A stretch of DNA of 36,522 nucleotides from a virus, in UHGV virus genome UHGV-0118448; one strand, given 5' to 3'. Shown here piece after piece: positions 1 to 30,340 of the stretch. The notes beneath the pieces are model-generated. The model made no database searches and had not been told where the DNA came from. It worked only from the letters and a program-made list of their open reading frames with translations. Each line of letters begins with the position of its first letter. Position 1 is the first letter of the stretch. Position numbers and translations under genes: made by a program.

Positions 1-49
1 TGACGGGTAAAAAGTGGATAAAATAATTTTACCCACCGGATTTTTACCC

Positions 50-1207
50 ATGCTCACCGTTAAGCAGATTGAAGCAGCAAAGCCGAAAGAAAAACCATAC
101 CGCCTACTCGATGGTAATGGCCTGTACCTTTATGTCCCTGTATCAGGGAAAAAGGTATGGCAGCTTCGCTACAAGATTGACGGTAAGGAGAAAATCCTGA
201 CCGTCGGAAAATATCCGCTTATGACTTTGCAGGAGGCAAGGGATAAAGCATGGACCGCGAGGAAAGACATCTCGGTTGGCATCGATCCGGTAAAGGCGAA
301 AAAGGCTTCGTCTAACAACAATTCCTTTAGTGCGATTTACAAGGAATGGTACGAGCACAAGAAGCAAGTATGGTCAGTAGGGTATGCGACTGAACTTGCA
401 AAAATGTTTGATGACGACATTTTACCTATCATCGGCGGCCTTGAAATTCAGGATATTGAGCCGATGCAACTGTTGGAAGTAATCCGCAGATTTGAAGATC
501 GCGGTGCAATGGAGCGAGCCAACAAAGCCCGCAGAAGATGCGGCGAGGTTTTCCGTTACGCTATTGTCACCGGAAGGGCTAAATATAACCCGGCACCTGA
601 CCTTGCAGACGCCATGAAAGGATACCGCAAGAAAAACTTCCCATTTTTACCTGCCGACCAGATCCCGGCATTCAACAAAGCACTTGCAACATTTTCAGGA
701 AGTATCGTATCGCTCATTGCGACCAAAGTTTTACGTTATACAGCCCTAAGAACGAAAGAGCTTCGTTCCATGCTATGGAAGAACGTCGATTTTGAAAACA
801 GGATTATCACCATCGACGCCAGTGTGATGAAGGGACGCAAAATTCATGTGGTCCCGATGTCAGACCAGGTGGTTGAACTTCTCACTACGCTAAGTTCAAT
901 CACCAAACCAGTCTCAGAGTTTGTTTTTGCCGGGCGCAACGATAAGAAGAAGCCAATCTGCGAGAACGCGGTATTGCTTGTGATCAAACAAATCGGCTAT
1001 GAAGGTCTGGAAAGCGGTCACGGATTCAGGCATGAATTCAGCACGATTATGAACGAGCACGAATGGCCTGCTGACGCTATTGAAGTGCAACTGGCACATG
1101 CCAACGGCGGATCTGTGCGCGGTATTTACAACCATGCTCAGTATCTCGATAAGCGCAGAGAAATGATGCAGTGGTGGGCGGATTGGATTGATGAAAAGGT
1201 GGAGTGA
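50..1207 (+). CDS. int: Tyrosine integrase (P4/IntS-like, 385 aa from ATG 50)
   Basis: N-terminus MLTVKQIEAAKPKEKPYRLLDGNGLYLYV typical of arm-binding domain of P4-type integrases; C-terminal HGFRHEF box and conserved Tyr region (GIYNHAQY). ORF track starts at GTG 14; ATG 50 matches the family N-terminus. Confidence 0.9.
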   Translation: MLTVKQIEAAKPKEKPYRLLDGNGLYLYVPVSGKKVWQLRYKIDGKEKILTVGKYPLMTLQEARDKAWTARKDISVGIDPVKAKKASSNNNSFSAIYKEWYEHKKQVWSVGYATELAKMFDDDILPIIGGLEIQDIEPMQLLEVIRRFEDRGAMERANKARRRCGEVFRYAIVTGRAKYNPAPDLADAMKGYRKKNFPFLPADQIPAFNKALATFSGSIVSLIATKVLRYTALRTKELRSMLWKNVDFENRIITIDASVMKGRKIHVVPMSDQVVELLTTLSSITKPVSEFVFAGRNDKKKPICENAVLLVIKQIGYEGLESGHGFRHEFSTIMNEHEWPADAIEVQLAHANGGSVRGIYNHAQYLDKRREMMQWWADWIDEKVE

Positions 1208-1430: not shown

Positions 1431-3335
1431 TCATGCGGATGGCGCATAAATTCCGTTAAAGTTAATTGAAATATCGTAATGTTGCATGTTGGCAGGAGTA
1501 ATCAGTAAATCTCTAAGTGTAACAACCACCCAGGGATTATCAGTGTTTGCTTTATCACAATAAACTCTTGTCGTTGTGGTTGACCCGGCATATACAGATA
1601 CATTTGCCGCAGATAATGTTCCGTCACTAGTGGCGTAATATGTTGCTGATGGCATTGTTGCAGTGCGGCCATGCGTTATTTCCACGATGCCAGCACTCAC
1701 CACAGAAACAGAGATATTATTTCTAATCCACTCTGGGACACCAGAGCCTGAAGGCGGTCTTCCATAACGAATGACTCCTGTTTTTGTATTAACAATAAAA
1801 GAGACGTCGGCATACACCGTGATTTTTAAAGTGAATGCATTGCCAACACGAAGTGGCTCTGCGTAGGCCCTGGCACCTTCTATACCCATAGTGCGATTGA
1901 CATATGCTGTAGCATAAAACCAGTTTTCTGCATTGTCTGCAATTTCTACAGAAAAATATTCCCCATCAGCAGAAACAACTAATTTATGGGCATTGGAAAT
2001 TTTCCATTCACTGTTTACTTCTTTAGATAAAAGAACCCATTTATCGTTATCATTGCTGTATTTAATAGTACCAGCGACTAATTTTGATCTTGTCCAAGGT
2101 GGGGCAAAATTTGAATATTGCGCTAAATCGGTTGAGGTTTTATTACTCGCCCCTCCTTTGACTATAGACCATAACCCCCTAGCACCTTCTCGCCCCATCG
2201 TATTGTAACCACGTTGTGTATAATGGACGCCTCCATCGTAAGTGCCAATATTGCCATCACCTTTTAAAAATGAAGGACAACCATCAAATACTGTCACAGC
2301 ATCAGTTTTGTTATTACAAACCCATCTTTGTGCATTTTGAATAGCAGCCCATGATTCTTCCGTTCGGTTCCCAGGGCAACCAACGGTAAAATTACCAAAT
2401 AAATCAAAATTAATATCGGCTTTCAGGTCATCTATCAAGGCTATAAAGCGGTCTCTATAAGAATTGTATGTGGTTCCTGATGACATATCCGTTTCACCCT
2501 GATGGAACAATACATACGTTTTACCGACAGGCAGACCTGCGGCAACCATCGCCTTTTTAGCTGATACCACGGCATTCACCAACAGCGAGTAGTATGTTGT
2601 CCCTTTTGATAGATGTGCTATCGACATTGCGCCACGGCCACAATGTATCTCCACTGAACCGCGCCCACTAAGGCGATACCATTCATTCTCAAATTCTCCC
2701 CAGGCATGTCCTGATGATGCAACTCCTGAAGAACTAACCACATTCTGAATTATTGGCTTTATAGTTCCATCTTTAAAATCGTACATTAACGATTTAGGAA
2801 GAGGATCTGGAAAACCTGATGTATCACCTGATAAAATAGCCTCGCCTGCGCTATTTGATTGCCCATACGTAACAAACACATCATATACATTTGGCGACTC
2901 AAGGTATTCTGTTGCAATAACATTACTTGCTATTTTTGATGCGGTTACTCCAGATATCATTACTGTACTATTAGTTTCTGACAACCTGCTTTCTAATTGA
3001 TCTGGATCATACTTCAATACGTTTGGAAAATAGAATTGCTGCGAACCATACGCATCATAAACAGCCATAGAATGGCCTTGCACAGTTACGAATTTGGCAA
3101 TCTGTCCGTTATATACAGGGTAACCAGCAGCGTTAATGATGATTGGTTGAGAAACAGGAACGTGAGAGCCATCTTCGTTCTCCACATAAGCCTGAATCTG
3201 GTTTTCAGGATTTACAGGGTCAGTATCAATTTTACCGATATAAATTTTGCCATTAGCTACGGCTTTAAAGGAACGAGCCATAGTGAAGAGTTGCGAAGGC
3301 ATTCCAATTACAACATTTGGGGTGATTTCCGTCAT
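1431..3335 (-). CDS. Tailspike protein: P22 gp9-type head-binding N-terminus fused to a carbohydrate-esterase-like (GQSN / HQGETD) receptor-binding region
   Basis: From internal Met: [43 protein letters not shown] matches the P22 tailspike head-binding domain; AGGA Shine-Dalgarno 8 nt upstream of ATG at 3335; downstream motifs [14 protein letters not shown] and VLFHQGETD. Gene is AT-rich relative to neighbours. Confidence 0.85.
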
Positions 3336-3526
3336 GGGCGCAATCCTATTAGATTGACTCGATAAAGAAGAGAATGGAGTTAATGCTACAAATGACGCTA
3401 TTGATTTGAAAAATGATCTTCTGTTCATTTAAGACACTCTTTAAGCATGACATTTGGTAGTAATGTAAGAAAAAATTACAATCAACTCCATAGCTATTTA
3501 ATTTTTAAAAGTGATTCACACCTGCA

Positions 3527-5920
3527 TTACCCTGACAACACATCAGACTTAGCACCCTGAGTCAGGGCGTTAATGGCCTTTTGCGCCTGCTGCATGGCTT
3601 TCTCAAATGCTGTTGACCCGCGTGGGGTATTTGCCATTCGGAGCATTGCATTTCTGAATGGTTCGCTCTCATAGGCGCGCGTAAGAAGTCCGTAGCTTAC
3701 TGCTGCGCCAGTTGTCGCCGGGTTCATTGCCGTCCCATACCCAATAATGAACGGGATAGTTTGCTGCCCTGTGGGTGTTGTTACTGCCGCTTTTGCAGCC
3801 TGCTGCGTGGATTGCAGGTAGTTTTTTAATCCTTTCAGATAAGCGGCTTCCTGACCTTTAAATGTGATGCCAGTCTGGTTTTGCAGGATGTTAAGCTGTC
3901 GAAGGAACTGGTCAGGGGAGCCACCTGATTTCTCCATCGCCTTTCCAATGATGCCATTGCGCATTTGCGCCCTGCCAACACGACCAACTGAGTTATACAG
4001 CGTCTTAATTTCCGATTTGTTCTTGCTGAATAGCATGTTGTTGACAACTTCCGGCGTCAGGTCGCCTTTCATGAGAACATTCTTCAGCCTGGTATTCTTT
4101 AGTTTCGCCGCTTCGTCAGCGTAGACGGCATTGGCCTGCTGATATTTACGGAGAGTATCGTTGCCAAGATTCTGACCAATGGCACCATTGATATCGTCGG
4201 TCATTGCCTTGTAAACGCGCTGAATGGCAGCATCGGAACGGTTTGGTAACACTGGTCGCTCCCCCTTCACGTCCATTCTGAACTGGCTGCGCAGATCGCT
4301 TAATTGCTTCAAATCCAGATTTACCGGACCATCAGGACCAGCATTGCGAACAAGCTCATCACGATAGGACTGAAGTTTTGAAATAGTCTCGTTATCAGCA
4401 ACCTTACCAAGCTTCTGCAGGTTAGATATTTCTGTATCAATCTGCTGAATTGCTCTTGCAGGCTGAATGTTTATTCCTGCCATAGCATTCTGAACCTGCT
4501 CAAGACGGTTCCCTGCAGCACGACGAATTCCTGATGTTTTCGCTTTAAGGCTGTCAATAACAACAGCTGGATCATACTCACCGAATTTATCAGCAAATCT
4601 CTGCACCAACTGGCTTCTCGCTTCCTGTTGCGTTGCTCTCATTCCGCTTGTGCCAGCCAGGGGGATATTTTCCGCTGTCGTCTGCGCCATTTTTCCGACG
4701 CGGGAAGTGGGTTGTAACAGGTCTGTGGTGTGCAGAGGAACTCCTTCACGTTCTGCAAATCTGATAGCCTGTTGCGCTTCTGGTGCTATCGAACCACGAA
4801 CACCACGATAAGCAGCACCTAATCCACGTCCGGCAGCGTTAATAGCACCGCCAGCCAGCACACCAACGCCTAAATCGGTGGCGAGTGCTTCCGCATCATC
4901 TTTCGCACTGTTTGCAGCAAGTGATCCAACTGCGTTTTCTGCGAGAAGGCGAGTTGCCCCCTGAGCAATTCGACCAGCAAGTGTTGGTGCCTGTGCTGCC
5001 GCTCTCTCAACGCCAGCAGGAGTGAGGTAAGGCAATGCTTCAGCAAATACCCTTCCCTCTGTCGTTTGTGGAGTCAGCGCGCCTTGCTGAAGGCCAAAGT
5101 CCTGCTCTAATCCCTGCGTTGTTACTCGTGGTGCTGGTTGATATGTACCATCGCCAATGCCGAGTTTACCGCCAGCCCAAGCCGCCGCGCTTGTTACAGC
5201 ATCAGTGAGTTCAGCAGGTATGTTCGCTACGTTGATTCCTGCCTGTAGTAAGCCGCGCCCGGTTTCAGCAAGTCCATTACCAAGGTCAGACATTATTCCG
5301 CCTTGCTGCTGAACAGGTTTCGGTGCGACAGAACTTACGGGTTGAGGTGGCTGCTGACTGGCTGCCTGCTGCTCAATCTGAGCAAATGGATTATTTGGGT
5401 CTGACTGCACGCCTGATGCCGATACTTGTTCGGATGACTGTGCTTCCAGTTGTGCAAACGGGTTGTTAGGGTCTTGCTGAGGATGTACCTTTGCAGAGGT
5501 GGCGCGCTGTTCGACTGTTGAGTCTGTCACCGGGTCACCCGCCCATTGAGCAAAGCGATCATCAACGTAACCGCGGCCTTCAGGTCCTGGCGTATATTCA
5601 CCACGCTTTGCCTTCATAACGTTGCCGGGACCGTCGTGATAAGCCTGAAGAGCGTCACGCCAGTTACCAAACTGCTGGTACATCTTTGCCAGATAGCGCG
5701 CGCCAGCGTCAGCCTGATATTCGGGGTTTTGCATTTGCTCATCGGTATAACCCATATCACGCCATGTCCCAGGCATGACCTGAGTCAATCCTACAGCCCC
5801 GGCGGAGCTTACTGCGGCAGGGTTGTAAGAAGACTCCTTGGCACCCAGTGCAGTCATCAACCCTTCTGGCACACCGTAACGTGCGCCAGCCTGCTCTAAC
5901 AAATCACGGTAATTAGCCAT
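3527..5920 (-). CDS. Ejection (internal virion) protein, gp16 position, with N-terminal lytic transglycosylase-like domain
   Basis: Last gene of the 7-20-16 ejection-protein block by synteny; N-terminus contains GLTQVMPGTW and surrounding SLT-like motifs; 797 aa, Ala/Gln-rich low-complexity middle. Confidence 0.75.
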   Translation of the reverse strand: MANYRDLLEQAGARYGVPEGLMTALGAKESSYNPAAVSSAGAVGLTQVMPGTWRDMGYTDEQMQNPEYQADAGARYLAKMYQQFGNWRDALQAYHDGPGNVMKAKRGEYTPGPEGRGYVDDRFAQWAGDPVTDSTVEQRATSAKVHPQQDPNNPFAQLEAQSSEQVSASGVQSDPNNPFAQIEQQAASQQPPQPVSSVAPKPVQQQGGIMSDLGNGLAETGRGLLQAGINVANIPAELTDAVTSAAAWAGGKLGIGDGTYQPAPRVTTQGLEQDFGLQQGALTPQTTEGRVFAEALPYLTPAGVERAAAQAPTLAGRIAQGATRLLAENAVGSLAANSAKDDAEALATDLGVGVLAGGAINAAGRGLGAAYRGVRGSIAPEAQQAIRFAEREGVPLHTTDLLQPTSRVGKMAQTTAENIPLAGTSGMRATQQEARSQLVQRFADKFGEYDPAVVIDSLKAKTSGIRRAAGNRLEQVQNAMAGINIQPARAIQQIDTEISNLQKLGKVADNETISKLQSYRDELVRNAGPDGPVNLDLKQLSDLRSQFRMDVKGERPVLPNRSDAAIQRVYKAMTDDINGAIGQNLGNDTLRKYQQANAVYADEAAKLKNTRLKNVLMKGDLTPEVVNNMLFSKNKSEIKTLYNSVGRVGRAQMRNGIIGKAMEKSGGSPDQFLRQLNILQNQTGITFKGQEAAYLKGLKNYLQSTQQAAKAAVTTPTGQQTIPFIIGYGTAMNPATTGAAVSYGLLTRAYESEPFRNAMLRMANTPRGSTAFEKAMQQAQKAINALTQGAKSDVLSG

Positions 5921-25133: not shown

Positions 25134-26570
25134 TCAGAATCCTCCTTTCTTCTTGGACTGCGGTTCCTCGCGTTCACGGCGGCGCATTTCAGCAGACTGT
25201 TGGTCTGTGTCATAAATAGCGCCATTTGCCTGAATGCAATACACCGTGCCGGTATTGCCATGACGATTGAGGCGAAGGATTAGTTCGGTTTCACCAGGTG
25301 GAACACTGTCATCAAAAGCACCTTCACGATGGATCCCCACCCAATAATCACAATCCTGTTCAATCTGCCCTGTATCTCGTGAGTCACTTGGTAATGGGCG
25401 TTTATTGGTTCGGCTTTCCAGTGCGCGGTTAAGCTGTGTCAGAAGCACAACAACGCAATCAAGCTCTTTGGCAAGGTTCTTCAGTCCTTTGGTGATCATG
25501 CCGTAAGCAAGGTCGTTGCGATCGGCCTTCTCAGCAGTCATTAGTGTCAGGTAATCGACCAGAATCATGCCAACGCATCCTTTTTCTCGTTTGATTCGAC
25601 GGCTTTCGCTGACGATTTGAGCCAGAGATAATCCCGGCGTGTCGTCGATGTAAAGCAGGTCGATTTCACTCAAGCGATTGGCTGTTTCGATCGCCCTGTT
25701 GAAGTCACCATCGTAATCACCCTGATAGCCGTCATCGGCGTCATTTGTCGCCGGAAGGTAAAAAATATTCGGGTTAACACCAGACTTCTGCCCTACCAGT
25801 TTTTCCAGTATCTGATCACCGGGCATTTCAAGGCTGAACATCAGAGCGGGCTTTTTCTCATGCACTGCGCAGTTGATTGCCATCTGGCTGTATAGCGTCG
25901 TTTTCCCCATCTTAGGGCGAGCGCCAATGACAAACAGAGAGCCTTTCACCAGACCTTTCGGTGACAGCATCCTGTCCAGCGATGGGATCCCTGTGCTCAT
26001 TCCTCGTTGTTCGCCTGACGGGTCAAATCGCTTCTCAAGGTCGCTAACCCAGTCTTCCATGACCTCACCAAATGAGCGAAGGCCGCGACGCGATCCGGTT
26101 TTTGCATGGTCTGTCAGTTGCGTGAAAATCGACTGAATAGCTTCGTACTTCTGTGTTGCAGTCATTCCGTTGCGGGAATAGAGCAATTCCGTCGCTTCAG
26201 TCATGCGGTTGATGGCGTAGCGTTCCATTGCGGTTTCGCGAACCTGCATTGCATAAGCAACGATGTTTGCTGCGCTTGGCGTGTTCTTTGCGATCTCAGC
26301 GATATAAGCAAAACCGCCAACAGACGCCGTTAACGATTTACGCTCCAGTTCATCGAAAAGCGTCAGGCCATCTACTGGCTTTTGCTCACGGTGCATTCTG
26401 GTTATTTCTTCGAAAATGATTTTGTGTGGTCGGCTGTAAAATGAATCAGGCTTCAGCATCGCCAGAACTTTCTGGACGCGCTCACTGCTGTCATCATCCA
26501 GAAGCAATCCACCAATCACCGCCTGCTCTGCCTCGATGCTATGGGGCGGCGCATAAAAATTATCGGTCAT
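25134..26570 (-). CDS. Replicative DNA helicase (DnaB-like, P22 gene 12 type)
   Basis: PPHSIEAEQAVIGGLLLD N-terminal DnaB motif, Walker A GARPKMGKT; probable start at MTDNFYA. Confidence 0.9.
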   Translation of the reverse strand: MTDNFYAPPHSIEAEQAVIGGLLLDDDSSERVQKVLAMLKPDSFYSRPHKIIFEEITRMHREQKPVDGLTLFDELERKSLTASVGGFAYIAEIAKNTPSAANIVAYAMQVRETAMERYAINRMTEATELLYSRNGMTATQKYEAIQSIFTQLTDHAKTGSRRGLRSFGEVMEDWVSDLEKRFDPSGEQRGMSTGIPSLDRMLSPKGLVKGSLFVIGARPKMGKTTLYSQMAINCAVHEKKPALMFSLEMPGDQILEKLVGQKSGVNPNIFYLPATNDADDGYQGDYDGDFNRAIETANRLSEIDLLYIDDTPGLSLAQIVSESRRIKREKGCVGMILVDYLTLMTAEKADRNDLAYGMITKGLKNLAKELDCVVVLLTQLNRALESRTNKRPLPSDSRDTGQIEQDCDYWVGIHREGAFDDSVPPGETELILRLNRHGNTGTVYCIQANGAIYDTDQQSAEMRRREREEPQSKKKGGF

Positions 26571-27387
26571 CGTGTTCACCCTCACGAACTTTCAGGTAGG
26601 TATTATCGTTAAGCAGGAAATCAAATCCCTTTTTGTGCCAGACGGTTCCGCGTTGATGGTTTGGGCGCTCTTCGAACATCCATCGGCAATTTTCGCCTAC
26701 GTAGCTCAAATAATTTCTCCAGTCCTGCATCGTGAACCCATGCCCGTCAAGCTGGCGGGTTATCACTCCGGCTTTGCGCCAGAACGTTCGGATCTGGTTT
26801 TTACGCTTGTCATTCAGTGCGCGGATTTTTGGCGCTTCAGGAAGGATTTCGTGGTAAGCATCGACAACATCCTGACAGCTAACGGAAGGTTTTTTCTTGT
26901 CAGACTTTTTGTCTGCTGTGGCACTCTCTAATACGTCAGTATTAGAGATATTATTTATATTATTGTTTATGGACAACCGTTGGACAGCCGTTGGACAATC
27001 TCCGCTGAGAGCCGCGCCATTACTGGTGTTTGCGTTGGACAACCGTTGGACAACCGTTGGACAATTTTTTGCCTGAAAATCGTCATATTTAACGATTGTA
27101 AACAGGCTAAATTTCTTCCCCATCGAGCAAATATTAAGCATCCCTTTCGACTCAAAAGTCCGTAATAAGCTCCGAACTTTGTTGTCGGGGATGAATGTTT
27201 CTCTGACCAGCGACGGGCGTCCAGTTATCATCTGACCGCGATCAACAGTTATCGGACCGATATCCGTATTGACGACAGTAGATTCGTGATTAGCCTTGAG
27301 GATTAAGTGAAGCCAAAGATGTACTGCCTGAGAGTCCTTATAGAGCCTGCTGTCCATAAACTGGCGGTGTATAGAGACATACCCCAT
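26560..27387 (-). CDS. Replication initiation protein (O-like) containing the ori iterons
   Basis: Start at MGYVSIHRQ with AGGAGG Shine-Dalgarno; coding sequence carries direct repeats (CPTVVQRLS / CPTAVQRLS in protein) followed by an AT-rich stretch. Confidence 0.8.
   Translation of the reverse strand: MGYVSIHRQFMDSRLYKDSQAVHLWLHLILKANHESTVVNTDIGPITVDRGQMITGRPSLVRETFIPDNKVRSLLRTFESKGMLNICSMGKKFSLFTIVKYDDFQAKNCPTVVQRLSNANTSNGAALSGDCPTAVQRLSINNNINNISNTDVLESATADKKSDKKKPSVSCQDVVDAYHEILPEAPKIRALNDKRKNQIRTFWRKAGVITRQLDGHGFTMQDWRNYLSYVGENCRWMFEERPNHQRGTVWHKKGFDFLLNDNTYLKVREGEHDDR
26974..27110. repeat. Origin of replication: about six CGTTGGACAA iterons in two clusters plus AT-rich region
   Basis: ggacaaccgttggacagccgttggacaatc ... 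gcgttggacaaccgttggacaaccgttggacaatttttt then AT-rich tract, inside the O-like gene as in lambda ori. Confidence 0.75.
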
Positions 27388-27436
27388 ACTGGATGCCTCC
27401 TGATGTTGTACAGGGTTATGCCTGTAATCAGCTAAC

Positions 27437-27598
27437 TTAACGACGCCCATGTTTCACTCCTGCTTTGGCTAGTCTGTAAACACCAACAAGGCGCTCTGCG
27501 AACGCCCTGTTATTTGCTGCGGCTACCACTAATCCCTCAGGTGAATCAGGGTGTCGAATCTCTTCTTTTTCCTGGTATTTCTTACGACGTTTTGTCAT
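27437..27598 (-). CDS. Hypothetical small basic protein (53 aa) between cII and O-like gene
   Basis: Hand translation MTKRRKKYQEKEEIRHPDSPEGLVVAAANNRAFAERLVGVYRLAKAGVKHGRR; AGGAG Shine-Dalgarno 5 nt upstream. Confidence 0.3.
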   Translation of the reverse strand: MTKRRKKYQEKEEIRHPDSPEGLVVAAANNRAFAERLVGVYRLAKAGVKHGRR

Positions 27599-27633: not shown

Positions 27634-27915
27634 TCAGGCCTCGAAGAATTCGCCGTTCTTCGGGGCTTTTTCTTTTGTCAGGTAATCGGCAAGTCGCTTA
27701 GTCAATTCAGCCATTTCATCGTCTTCGATTCCGTATTCCAGAACAGCCAGCATCATGCTTACCTGCGAGAAGAAACCATTCTTCCATCGGCTTACCTGGT
27801 ATTCAGGAACCCCCATCGCGCGAGCGAATGTCTTCTGCCCCATAAGTGCCAGTTTGTTCAGCAAGGCTGACTCGATGCGAGCCGCTTTCTTGCTTTTAGT
27901 TGCAATAGTACCCAT
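27634..27915 (-). CDS. cII: CII-like transcriptional activator
   Basis: ARIESALLNKLALMG...VSRWK...MLAVLEYGIEDDEMAEL parallels lambda CII. Confidence 0.85.
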   Translation of the reverse strand: MGTIATKSKKAARIESALLNKLALMGQKTFARAMGVPEYQVSRWKNGFFSQVSMMLAVLEYGIEDDEMAELTKRLADYLTKEKAPKNGEFFEA

Positions 27916-27991
27916 AGATAATTTCCTTAATGATTAGATAGAGTTGGCTTCGCAAAGAAACGCAAAACCATAGAGATTTGTTTCTGGTAAT

Positions 27992-28023
27992 GCCCTTTTT
28001 CAGGGCGGGGATGTGTAAGAGCG
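27992..28023 (-). promoter_or_regulatory. nutR (boxA CGCTCTTA, boxB GCCCTGAAAAAGGGC)
   Basis: Minus strand reads cgctcttacacatccccgccctgaaaaagggc between cro and cII. Confidence 0.8.
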
Positions 28024-28031
28024 TTAATAAC

Positions 28032-28262
28032 TTAAGCGGCCATTAATTCAGGCCAGATGCTTTCCCAATCAACCGGATGAAGGTCTTTGCGAGTTACTTC
28101 ACCATTGCTGAACTTCTCAATCAGAACACAAAGTGCTGCGCCCAATTCATGATTACGGCTAAGTGCTTTCCTCAAATAGCCGATAGAAGTTCCGCACTTG
28201 GTGGCAAATTCTCTCTGCTCTTCCAGTGAAAGGGAGTTCAGATACAAGCGGAGTTCTTCCAT
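28032..28262 (-). CDS. cro: Cro-like repressor (non-lambda HTH type)
   Basis: 76 aa, divergent from cI across the operator region; AGGAG Shine-Dalgarno; HTH-like QREFATKCGTSIGYLRKAL. Confidence 0.75.
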   Translation of the reverse strand: MEELRLYLNSLSLEEQREFATKCGTSIGYLRKALSRNHELGAALCVLIEKFSNGEVTRKDLHPVDWESIWPELMAA

Positions 28263-28294
28263 TTGCTATCTCCTTCCCGTTGTTGAATAAGGTG

Positions 28295-28364
28295 AGTTTA
28301 CCTGTAGGTAAAAGGCAAATCAATACCCATAGGTTATTTACCGACAGGTAATCAAAGATAGAAT
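28295..28364. promoter_or_regulatory. Right operator/promoter region: operators TTACCTGTAGGTAA (28298-28311) and TTACCGACAGGTAA (28338-28351); candidate pR (-10 at 28295-28300, -35 at 28318-28323, minus strand) and pRM (-10 TAGAAT 28359-28364, leaderless cI)
   Basis: Two 14-bp palindromes of form TTACC-N4-GGTAA between divergent cro and cI; promoter hexamers placed by spacing. Confidence 0.65.
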
Positions 28365-28370
28365 TAAATC

Positions 28371-29057
28371 ATGGATAAATACGAACAAAGACGACTAAGG
28401 CTGATAGAGATAAGAGACCGATTCTGTAATGGAAAGGCCTCAGAGTTGGCTCGTCGAATAGAAAGGGAACCATCATACGTTTCCAGAATGCTGTATCCGG
28501 AAGGAAAAAGCGGAAAAAAACGCATTGCTGACGATATGATGGAACTAATTGAAAAATCTTTTAATCTCCCACGCGGATGGATGGACATGCTTGTAGATGG
28601 TAAAGCTGGAGCTACAGACCATCTTGAGTTTGCGGGTAACGTTCGTGCGGGTTTTGTTCCGGTAATTGGTGAAGCCGTTTTGGGAGTTGATGGCTCAGTG
28701 GATATGATTGAATTCAGATCCGGTTGGTTAAGCATCTACAGCGGCGATAAAGATGCTTACGGTCTGAAGGTTAAGGGTGACAGCATGTGGCCAAGGATTC
28801 AGTCAGGAGAATATGTTGTTATTGAACCAAATACGCCAGTACATCCAGGTGATGAAGTCTTTGTAAGGACCAAAGACGGTCACAACATGATAAAGATCAT
28901 GAACAAAACAAGAGACGGTGATTATCAGTTTAGTAGCATAAACAGTGATCACCGCCCAATCACTCTTCCTGTTGAAGAAGTTGATAAAATGCATTTTGTT
29001 TCAGCTATTGTGAAACACACCAGGTACGTAGACCAGGACGATCTGCCAAAAGTTTGA
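28371..29057 (+). CDS. cI: CI repressor with C-terminal S24 (LexA-like) autocleavage domain
   Basis: N-terminal HTH region; C-terminal GDSMWP Ser nucleophile motif and downstream Lys; no Shine-Dalgarno (leaderless, as lambda cI). Confidence 0.9.
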   Translation: MDKYEQRRLRLIEIRDRFCNGKASELARRIEREPSYVSRMLYPEGKSGKKRIADDMMELIEKSFNLPRGWMDMLVDGKAGATDHLEFAGNVRAGFVPVIGEAVLGVDGSVDMIEFRSGWLSIYSGDKDAYGLKVKGDSMWPRIQSGEYVVIEPNTPVHPGDEVFVRTKDGHNMIKIMNKTRDGDYQFSSINSDHRPITLPVEEVDKMHFVSAIVKHTRYVDQDDLPKV

Positions 29058-29071
29058 GGATAAAGCAGCAA

Positions 29072-29368
29072 ATGTTTATACCCGGCATAGTAGTCGCTGT
29101 TGTAATCATCTGCTTCATATGGGCAAAGTTATCTCCTGTAAGCTCTAAGCATACAGCTGAACTCATGAGGAAGAAGCATCTTATACATGAGGCAGAATCG
29201 ATAATTAAAAAGTTCAAAGGCATGTCATACGACGACATGTCATCAGAGCAGATTGCTATGTATAAATGCGCCATTGAGCGCCTTGACTACTTAAACGGAC
29301 TCAAACCCAAACACACCCCAGTAGAATCAAAATTGCCGCAATGGCCAGGCAATCCAAATAGCTTCTGA
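29072..29368 (+). CDS. Small membrane-anchored protein co-transcribed with cI (rexAB-slot accessory gene)
   Basis: MFIPGIVVAVVIICFIWAKL N-terminal TM helix then soluble 75-aa domain; immediately follows cI stop; followed by strong terminator. Confidence 0.6.
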   Translation: MFIPGIVVAVVIICFIWAKLSPVSSKHTAELMRKKHLIHEAESIIKKFKGMSYDDMSSEQIAMYKCAIERLDYLNGLKPKHTPVESKLPQWPGNPNSF

Positions 29369-29379
29369 CATCTCCTTTC

Positions 29380-29404
29380 AGCCCGCAAAGCGGGCTTTTT
29401 TATA
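29380..29404 (+). terminator. Intrinsic terminator ending the cI operon
   Basis: agcccgc-aaa-gcgggct followed by ttttttat. Confidence 0.85.
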
Positions 29405-29464
29405 TCAATCCAAAAAATTAATTACCTGAAAATTCAAGCAGGTAAACTCTCACATCAATTTTAT

Positions 29465-29506
29465 TTACCTACAGGTATAGACAGCGGTTTTACCTGTAGG
29501 TATATT
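29465..29506 (+). promoter_or_regulatory. Left operator/promoter: operators TTACCTACAGGTAT (29465-29478) and TTACCTGTAGGTAT (29490-29503); candidate pL -35 TAGACA (29478-29483), -10 TATATT (29501-29506)
   Basis: Same TTACC-N4-GGTA family as the right operators, overlapping promoter hexamers with 17-bp spacing. Confidence 0.65.
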
Positions 29507-29546
29507 TTAAGCCATCAGCAGGACGCACTAACCACCATGAAGGTGA

Positions 29547-29577
29547 TGCTCTTAAAAATTAAGCCCTGAAGAAGGGC
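29547..29577 (+). promoter_or_regulatory. nutL (boxA TGCTCTTA, boxB GCCCTGAAGAAGGGC)
   Basis: gatgctcttaaaaattaagccctgaagaagggc upstream of N; boxB identical to lambda nutL as recalled. Confidence 0.85.
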
Positions 29578-29734
29578 AGCATTCAAAGCAGAAGGCTTTG
29601 GTGTGTGTGATACGAAACGAAGCATTGGCCGGAAGTGCGAATCCGGATTAGCTGCCAATGTGCCATTGCGGGGTGTTTTCGTTCAGGACTACGACTCCCA
29701 CACACAACCAAAGCTAACTGACAGGAGAATCCAG

Positions 29735-30061
29735 ATGGATGCACAAACACGCCGCCGCGAACGTCGCGCAGAGAAACAGGCTCAATGGAAAGCAGCAAAT
29801 CCCCTGTTGGTTGGGGTAAGCGCAAAACCAGTTAACCGCCCTATTCTCTCGCTGAATCGCAAACCGAAATCACGAGTAGAAAGCGCACTGAATCCGATAG
29901 ACCTTACAGTGCTGGCTGAATACCACGAACAGATTGAAAGCAACCTGCAACGTATTGAACGCAAGAATCAGCGCACATGGTACAGCAAGCCACGTAGTGA
30001 AATGGGTGTGACTTGTGTTGGTCGCCAGAAAATGAAATTAGGCAGCAAACCACTTATTTGA
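29735..30061 (+). CDS. N: Antiterminator N (lambda-type, 107 aa from internal Met)
   Basis: MDAQTRRRERRAEKQAQWKAANPLLVGVSAKPVNRPILSLNRKPKSRVESALNPIDLTVLAEYH... essentially lambda N; Arg-rich motif. Confidence 0.9.
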   Translation: MDAQTRRRERRAEKQAQWKAANPLLVGVSAKPVNRPILSLNRKPKSRVESALNPIDLTVLAEYHEQIESNLQRIERKNQRTWYSKPRSEMGVTCVGRQKMKLGSKPLI

Positions 30062-30069
30062 GGTGAGAT

Positions 30070-30156
30070 ATGGAAGAAGAATTTGAAGAGTTCGAAGAGC
30101 ATCCTCAAGATGTGATGGAACAATACCAGGACTATCCGTATGACTACGACTATTGA
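30070..30156 (+). CDS. Possible 28-aa highly acidic peptide (MEEEFEEFEEHPQDVMEQYQDYPYDYDY)
   Basis: ATG 5 nt after AGGT; overlaps ral start by 17 nt; short, so coding status uncertain. Confidence 0.25.
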   Translation: MEEEFEEFEEHPQDVMEQYQDYPYDYDY

Positions 30157-30340
30157 TACAAATCAATGGTGTGGACAATTCAAACGATGCAATGGATGCA
30201 AGCTGCAATCGGAATGCATGGTTAAGCCTGAAGAAATGTTTCCTGTAATGGAAGATGGGAAATATGTCGATAAATGGGCAATACGAACGACGGCAATGAT
30301 TGCCAGAGAACTTGGTAAACAGAATAACAAGGCTGCCTGA
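30140..30340 (+). CDS. ral: Restriction alleviation protein Ral
   Basis: 66 aa MTTTIDTNQWCGQFKRCNGCKLQSECMVKPEEMFPVMEDGKYVDKW... essentially lambda Ral. Confidence 0.9.
   Translation: MTTTIDTNQWCGQFKRCNGCKLQSECMVKPEEMFPVMEDGKYVDKWAIRTTAMIARELGKQNNKAA

Follow-up and report, generated by a model that had tools for sequence, protein, structure and literature searches.

Why would a temperate phage carry a single small membrane protein directly behind its repressor? The range of other phages able to infect a lysogen is set by prophage genes expressed together with the repressor, and two classical sites for such genes are the slot between cI and the leftward operator (OL), where rexAB or bstA is found, and the slot that holds sieA in P22. 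In the virus genome UHGV-0118448, analysed here as one stretch of 36,522 nucleotides (the window), the cI-OL slot contains one open reading frame (ORF) of 98 codons, in which a preliminary description had seen a candidate exclusion or abortive-infection factor. We find that this ORF is a real gene under purifying selection, that its product belongs to PHROG 10450, a small enterobacterial family, and that the family recurs in two different lysogeny-associated slots, behind cI and in the place of sieA. Our preferred reading, to which we give a probability of about 0.4, is that the ORF is a lysogen-expressed accessory gene (a 'moron') that protects against superinfection, preferably by blocking genome delivery.

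The features that bear most directly on this question are listed here in window coordinates; the close copies referred to are 26 sequences from IMG/VR contigs, phage mEp043 and E. coli.

28371..29057, plus strand: cI-type repressor of 228 aa with an S24 autopeptidase C-terminal domain (Pfam Peptidase_S24, PF00717, E 1.4e-17; phrog_4), annotated 'cI' in mEp043
29056..29060, plus strand: GAGGA Shine-Dalgarno sequence, overlapping the cI stop codon and 11 nt before the ATG of the ORF, identical in 26/26 close copies
29072..29368, plus strand: 98-aa ORF of the PHROG 10450 family (ATG 29072, TGA 29366-29368)
29075..29131, plus strand: predicted single transmembrane helix, codons 2-20 (FIPGIVVAVVIICFIWAKL), mean Kyte-Doolittle score 2.53
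29132..29365, plus strand: conserved basic domain, codons 21-98 (~78 residues), a predicted helical hairpin and a C-terminal tail with the invariant W91-P92
29380..29402, plus strand: intrinsic terminator, AGCCCGC AAA GCGGGCT followed by TTTTTT, closing the cI-ORF unit

The ORF is present exactly as it had first been quoted, and its close placement behind cI stands, although the gap between the cI stop codon and the ATG is 14 nt and not the 15 nt originally given. The terminator placed before OL is indeed a strong one, with a 7-bp stem containing six G-C pairs (29380-29396), followed by TTTTTTAT, and a folding energy of -12.6 kcal/mol (z = -3.3). Its sequence is identical in 26/26 close copies, and a hairpin with a different stem sequence is found at the same place in three of four diverged lineages that carry the gene behind cI. 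We found no second terminator-like site on the plus strand in 27900-29800, and none between cI and the ORF. Because the gap is 14 nt, no terminator intervenes and a terminator follows the ORF, the gene is probably co-transcribed with cI, as the second gene of the transcript from the repressor maintenance promoter PRM. The GC content of the ORF (42.1%) can be compared with that of cI (42.9%) and of the window (48.0%).

The window carries a lambdoid immunity region, which in our reading of its ORFs and domains has the orientation of lambda's leftward transcription. The palindrome TTACCTNNAGGTAA occurs with zero or one mismatch at only four places in the whole 36.5-kb window, namely at 28298 and 28338 in the rightward operator (OR) and at 29465 and 29490 in OL; a scan allowing up to three mismatches gave 30 matches against 9.5 expected. 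Since the operators with zero or one mismatch flank the cI-ORF pair, the ORF belongs to the immunity region and occupies its cI-OL interval; with a PL-like promoter, nutL and N mapped beyond it, this is the slot that holds rexAB in lambda, just as had been suggested. The interval between cI and N is a known hotspot of mosaicism (Owen et al., PMC8585504).

We take ATG 29072 as the start codon because the N-terminal sequence M[YFW]I[PS] is conserved across homologues. An upstream TTG at 29054, which is used in the mEp043 records and would give a 104-aa protein overlapping cI, was rejected, as ATG 29072 is where all homologues begin, with M[YFW]I[PS]. The codon at this position is GTG in five close copies, mEp043 included, and a start codon is never lost.

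The reading frame is open in 26/26 close copies. Variants across them are nine synonymous and eight non-synonymous, with a ratio of non-synonymous to synonymous polymorphism (pN/pS) of 0.23 as compared to 0.10 for cI, and the pairwise ratio of non-synonymous to synonymous substitution rates (dN/dS) to the most diverged alleles is 0.15-0.18, similar to cI. The ORF is a real gene under purifying selection, and the possibility of a spurious ORF appears essentially excluded. The segment that contains the ORF and its terminator (29040-29420) was found in 52 of 5426 complete E. coli genomes, as a single chromosomal copy in every case. The gene is largely missing from the annotations inspected: the S24 repressor is the only PGAP feature under the segment match in the 30 listed genomes out of the 52 with a match, PGAP/RefSeq places no gene in the ~700-bp interval between cI and N (equivalent to 29058-29734 of the window) in the three E. 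coli genomes inspected (L003, L042 and L043), and in the mEp043 records the ORF appears as a 'hypothetical protein'. Among complete E. coli genomes, about 1% thus possess a selected gene that has been overlooked in a regulatory region that ranks among the best studied.

The preliminary description could place the protein in no recognised family. Neither Pfam, NCBIfam, PADLOC, PDB nor a fold library gave a match for it, and among the 5027 defence-protein models of PADLOC-DB v2 no family was hit at E values up to 10. The only match is to PHROG 10450 ('unknown function'), over the full length of the protein (E 3.1e-54; residues 1-98 of the 98-position profile). An exhaustive HMMER scan of 1.84 billion representative proteins returned only a handful of true relatives, and a profile search of 5.8 billion proteins returned 26 clusters. 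Two further hits (P0008 and P0010; HMMER E 1e-10 to 1e-9) were discarded as spurious, being long tandem-repeat proteins with scores summed from many weak repeat matches. True relatives are 97-114 aa long, if mis-called N-terminal extensions are ignored, and start with M[YFW]I[PS] throughout. Recognisable homologues are 29-43% identical and share the same length, N-terminal transmembrane segment and architecture, and an alignment of 16 sequences has 12 invariant residues (S24, K34, I38, E40, A41, M56, Q60, C66, A67, L71, W91 and P92).

Residues 2-20 are the sole hydrophobic segment of the protein, in agreement with the one N-terminal transmembrane helix first noticed; there is no second such segment in the ORF product, and a single N-terminal hydrophobic stretch is found in 18/18 members of 97-114 aa. 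In all 18 members no Lys or Arg precedes the stretch and one to six occur in the 15 residues that follow it, with four in the window protein. By the positive-inside rule, this charge distribution would place the C-terminal 78 residues in the cytoplasm, and the N-terminus would accordingly be periplasmic. The transmembrane sequence is the least conserved part of the protein and has no conserved polar or charged residues. AlphaFold2, run with the family alignment, gave a model (pLDDT 79) with a helix at residues 5-47, a loop, a helix at residues 58-76 packed back on the first, and an extended tail with the Trp-Pro pair; in this model the long helix 5-47 is predicted to run from the membrane into the cytoplasm. 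A cleavable signal peptide was rejected, since no member has a positively charged n-region, the hydrophobic stretch is ~19 residues long, and an A-x-A-like site is not conserved.

We inspected seven loci encoding distant members of the family (29-35% identical, 102-114 aa). In six of them (phage N7, L004, L006, L008, L009 and L010/L011), all in P22-like prophages, the gene lies between a convergent gene-16 homologue and mnt or the tailspike gene (gene 9), which is the interval occupied by sieA in P22; at the seventh (L005) it stands beside remnants of gp7 and gp20. The window copy is instead found after cI. No SieA-like gene was present in any family-carrying interval examined. The homologue at N7 also matches PHROG 10450 (E 3.2e-52), and the N7-type allele was found in 57 of 5426 E. 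coli genomes. This locus has a Pmnt-like promoter, and no terminator-like site separates mnt from the homologue, which fits co-transcription with mnt. Promoter scans upstream of the stand-alone copies L004 and L009 in this slot gave nothing convincing.

The family gene is solitary in several loci. In several P22-like prophages (L002 3008-3848, L006 2196-2886 and L010 1530-2367), two other small proteins are encoded before the family member, downstream of mnt. One of these is Cys-rich and possibly a zinc ribbon (phrog_4293 or phrog_5893), and the other is a single-transmembrane protein (phrog_24865, phrog_6324 or phrog_2990), one example of which has weak holin/hemolysin-like matches. The small genes downstream of mnt may constitute a variable, mnt-driven accessory operon.

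Comparison of the cI-OL slot across related prophages, a check that had been proposed at the outset, revealed three further lineages (L038/L039, L040 and L041) in which the family gene directly follows an S24 cI and precedes OL/PL and N. Their ORF proteins are 42-48% identical to the window protein and among themselves, and their cI proteins are 83-84% identical to the window cI; to judge from these sequences, the linkage to cI is old. Divergence of the ORF protein is five to six times that of cI and cro (dN 0.48-0.60 as compared to 0.07-0.10), with synonymous divergence (dS) saturated for all three genes. Because of this saturation, replacement of alleles and faster evolution are indistinguishable as sources of a 42-48% identical ORF beside an 83-84% identical cI. 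Fast divergence suggests a pattern often found in conflict genes. In L039 the full frame of 97 codons is present and a 55-aa gene call is an artefact. The copy in L041 (4386-5168), likewise called at 55 aa, is a pseudogene in which a stop replaces the codon of the invariant Lys34, and the adjacent cI is called at 161 aa; in this prophage the whole immunity module appears to be decaying together.

The phage in which the window copy resides also bears on its function. From 28000 to ~29610 the window is 98.6% identical to mEp043, with no other match in the phage collection, and the junction between mEp043-type immunity and a lambda/434-type nutL-N region lies at about 29500-29610. The virion genes of the window are P22-like (gp7, gp20, a Head_binding tailspike and IME10-like structural genes), whereas mEp043 is a lambda-type siphovirus with a lambda-type tail; the prophage PA45B, another carrier, is P22-like. 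By these comparisons the module travels with immunity and not with virion type. The distance from the tailspike gene to the gene at the gene-16 position is only 98 bp (3429-3526; AT-rich, 28.6% GC), and the window has no immI (mnt/arc/ant) or sieA region between these two genes. Integrase (14-1207, plus strand) and tailspike (1431-3428, minus strand) converge over a 223-bp gap (1208-1430), and the window is therefore in the phage (attP) arrangement and not that of an integrated prophage.

Two observations concern the virion genes themselves. The window tailspike has a SASA/sialate-esterase-like domain. The gene at the gene-16 position (3527-5920, minus strand) encodes a protein of 796 aa that carries an SLT lytic-transglycosylase domain at its N-terminus and does not match the Pfam model Phage_P22_gp16, next to canonical gp20 and gp7; it looks like a non-standard third ejection protein.

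How might such a protein act? We propose that it would be made in lysogens as the second gene product of the PRM-cI transcript, without being needed for the repressor switch, and that it would be a single-pass inner-membrane protein with its N-terminus at the periplasmic face and a basic helical-hairpin domain of ~78 residues in the cytoplasm. As a portable gene acting alone, it could guard the lysogen against superinfecting phage at the cytoplasmic membrane. The mechanism we prefer is that it disturbs the delivery of phage genomes through the inner membrane; the protein would then be a non-homologous functional analogue of P22 SieA. SieA suffices to stop P22-like phages from injecting their DNA, and mutations that escape it fall in gp16 and gp20 (Leavitt et al., PMC10883804).

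Three considerations lead to this reading. The family is found in two independent lysogeny-oriented slots, and those of their occupants that have been characterised serve exclusion or defence. Its main home adjoins the ejection-protein genes, in place of sieA. Lastly, the window phage is of P22 type and lacks sieA, with a family member behind cI instead. It is genomic position that points to a SieA-like or a Rex-like mode of working. An anti-phage function of some kind seems to us somewhat better than an even bet. Its narrower form, superinfection exclusion at the inner membrane that acts on genome delivery and resembles SieA in function and not in sequence, is the best supported of the specific readings, yet by itself rather unlikely. 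More speculative, and held with at least as much doubt, is the general proposal that PHROG 10450 might be an unrecognised class of superinfection-exclusion protein, single-pass with its N-terminus out and C-terminus in, which replaces SieA in P22-like phages without it, stops genome delivery from the cytoplasmic face (it might cap or mis-assemble the gp7/gp20/gp16 conduit, or a host factor needed by the conduit), and has moved between mnt-sieA and cI-rex operons and hence into lambda-type siphoviruses such as mEp043. The position and architecture first described for the ORF are borne out, and the exclusion or abortive-infection role proposed with them gains circumstantial support from the sieA slot; homology to a known defence protein was not found, and the ORF is a candidate for such a role.

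Several points weigh against our reading. Position is weak evidence, as both slots also hold other cargo. The absence of sieA from the seven loci is only marginally informative, given that about two thirds of P22-like phages are without sieA anyway. The same module is present in mEp043, a lambda-type siphovirus, and a target specific to P22-type ejection proteins is thus not implied. Blocking entry by way of a cytoplasmic domain would be unusual, though the best-conserved motif of SieA is also predicted to be cytoplasmic. Finally, the fast evolution of the protein could be explained by weak constraint on a small protein.

Comparison with characterised systems delimits what the family may be. 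The nearest in location is lambda RexAB, which has in common with the window ORF the cI-OL slot, presumed co-transcription from PRM, a terminator before OL, membrane association (predicted for the window protein) and dispensability for immunity. RexAB differs in comprising two genes, for a soluble sensor and a multi-pass membrane protein, whereas in the window one 98-aa ORF with a single transmembrane segment fills the whole interval from cI to the terminator. RexB has four transmembrane segments. No homology to RexA or RexB was detected by Pfam, NCBIfam or PADLOC.

P22 SieA shares its slot with the relatives of the window protein in sieA-less P22-like prophages, and like them is convergent with gene 16. 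It is likewise small, prophage-oriented and located in the inner membrane (a predicted location in our case), and its best-conserved motif is, as here, predicted to be cytoplasmic. However, SieA has 162-164 aa, three predicted transmembrane segments and the motif FxRYPxEAxxFNK, whereas the window family has one transmembrane segment and other conserved residues. The three SieA types, A to C, are less than 30% identical and have three (type A) or four predicted transmembrane segments in about 160-200 aa, a description that the window family does not fit (PMC10883804). Homology to P22 SieA was rejected: hhalign gave a probability of 0.7%, the two belong to different families (PHROG 7745 as compared to 10450), and FxRYPxEAxxFNK is absent from the family alignment.

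The bstA gene of the P22-like Salmonella prophage BTP1 directly follows the repressor gene, is presumably expressed from the repressor promoter and has its own terminator, in all of which it resembles the window ORF. BstA differs from the window protein in being soluble, associated with DNA and far larger, and it has a cognate element for self-immunity, aba. No Pfam or PADLOC match to BstA was found for the ORF product, which has about a third of its size; an aba-like element was not searched for. In phage BTP1, bstA is an abortive-infection gene downstream of cI, with a promoter presumably common to both (PMC8585504).

HK97 gp15 and T4 Imm, two exclusion proteins of the inner membrane that are each encoded by a single gene, are, as predicted for the window protein, short and membrane-anchored. 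Both act alone at the step of DNA entry, and HK97 gp15 is encoded in the tail gene cluster. They differ from the window protein in being unrelated in sequence (our library searches were negative) and in having other genomic locations, and their topologies and targets differ or are undefined. T4 Imm is among the systems listed in PMC11436027. Neither the ORF nor its family is the subject of any study found in a search of the literature on mEp043, lambdoid exclusion and genes behind cI. A repressor-linked moron for a small membrane protein is of a well-known kind, yet the family is uncharacterised and its two-slot distribution appears to be undescribed.

The rival explanation that survives best is that the protein is expressed in the lysogen and has no anti-phage role. 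It could modulate a host inner-membrane protein involved in transport, stress or proteolysis (e.g. FtsH/HflKC), or tune prophage maintenance or induction, with a fitness effect on the lysogen or an effect on the switch. Both slots could be merely lysogen-expressed sites with mixed cargo, the companions of the family in the sieA slot are other uncharacterised small proteins, and the maintenance repressors to which the family is linked, cI and Mnt, are of unrelated types. The sequence also contains no feature diagnostic of defence. On the other hand, a family that is not bound to one type of repressor is unlikely to have a specific partner in the switch, the characterised occupants of both slots are rexAB, bstA and sieA, and a divergence five to six times faster than that of cI and cro is less expected for interaction with a conserved host protein. 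We consider this explanation a genuine possibility, but on the unlikely side.

We find it improbable that the ORF product achieves in one polypeptide what RexA and RexB do together. In such a Rex- or RexB-like abortive infection, the hairpin would sense a product of the infecting phage, the transmembrane helices would oligomerise and depolarise or permeabilise the membrane, and the cell would die before phage release. The exact rexAB/bstA position of the gene, presumably driven by PRM, fits this idea, as does a membrane anchor joined to a conserved cytoplasmic domain that might be the sensor, and fast evolution would fit a conflict between sensor and target. However, the protein has no similarity to RexA, RexB, BstA or any PADLOC model, its lone and poorly conserved transmembrane helix, devoid of conserved polar or charged residues, would be a poor pore former, and the main home of the family, in the sieA slot beside the ejection-protein genes, points to entry. 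Taken together, the evidence leans slightly towards exclusion at the membrane over Rex-like abortive infection, without deciding between them.

A non-functional ORF, arisen by chance or decaying between cI and OL, is very improbable: the empty cI-N interval in the PGAP annotations inspected and the L041 pseudogene (stop at codon 34, beside a truncated cI) would fit such a remnant, but they are opposed by the intact frames with their pN/pS and constant ATG or GTG start, the conserved Shine-Dalgarno sequence and terminator, the persistence of the family, 29-43% identical and with 12 residues unchanged, in both of its genomic contexts, and an AlphaFold model that is confident for a protein of this size.

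Found in both slots, in one of them in sieA's stead, unlike known defence proteins and unannotated by RefSeq in the E. coli genomes inspected, the family is a concrete candidate for a new exclusion mechanism. If P22-type delivery is indeed blocked from the cytoplasmic side, the protein would provide a second, independent way to study the passage of the gp7/gp20/gp16 conduit through the inner membrane, a question left open by the work on SieA. If it has no phage phenotype, it would be one more small prophage membrane protein without an assigned role.

The remaining features of the immunity region and its surroundings, in window coordinates, are as follows.

25134-26585, minus strand: DnaB-type helicase
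26560-27450, minus strand: replication initiator
27634-27915, minus strand: cII
28032-28262, minus strand: Cro-like helix-turn-helix protein
Between cro and cI: operator/promoter region of 108 bp
28298..28351: OR, with three operator-like palindromes, at 28298-28311 (perfect, TTACCTGTAGGTAA), 28323-28336 (degenerate) and 28338-28351 (one mismatch)
28337..28364, plus strand: PRM-like promoter, TTTACC-16-TAGAAT, matching the consensus at only 9/12 positions
29422..29445: inverted repeat TTACCTG-N10-CAGGTAA, between the terminator and OL
29465-29478 and 29490-29503: OL operators, overlapping the PL-like promoter
29478-29506, plus strand: PL-like promoter, TAGACA-17-TATATT
29563..29577, plus strand: putative nutL boxB, GCCCTGAAGAAGGGC, flagged as a minus-strand 'terminator' by a consensus scan
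29735..30061, plus strand: lambda-type antiterminator N, 108 aa (PF11438 N36, E 1.5e-26)

The -10 element of the PRM-like promoter, TAGAAT, ends 6 nt upstream of the cI ATG, and no Shine-Dalgarno sequence was found upstream of cI (28337-28373). This spacing and the missing Shine-Dalgarno sequence make it probable that cI, like its lambda counterpart, is translated from a leaderless mRNA.

The inverted repeat at 29422-29445 consists of two operator half-sites that are spaced 10 bp, or one helical turn, wider than in the operators. In four diverged lineages (the window; L038, at ~2768-2791; L040; L041), repeats of this type have invariant half-sites and a variable spacer. L040 has no GC-rich terminator, and its repeat of operator half-sites is followed by ACTTTTT. 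The repeat may serve as a third, atypical OL site or in DNA looping, or it may form a hairpin.

From about 29500, the nutL region is 94-98% identical to that of lambda/434, and the hairpin at 29563-29577 is presumably the boxB of a lambda-type nutL. Beyond N, a small ORF (30140-30340) is the counterpart of a gene annotated 'antirestriction Ral family protein' in an identical E. coli prophage region (L003 4101-4301).
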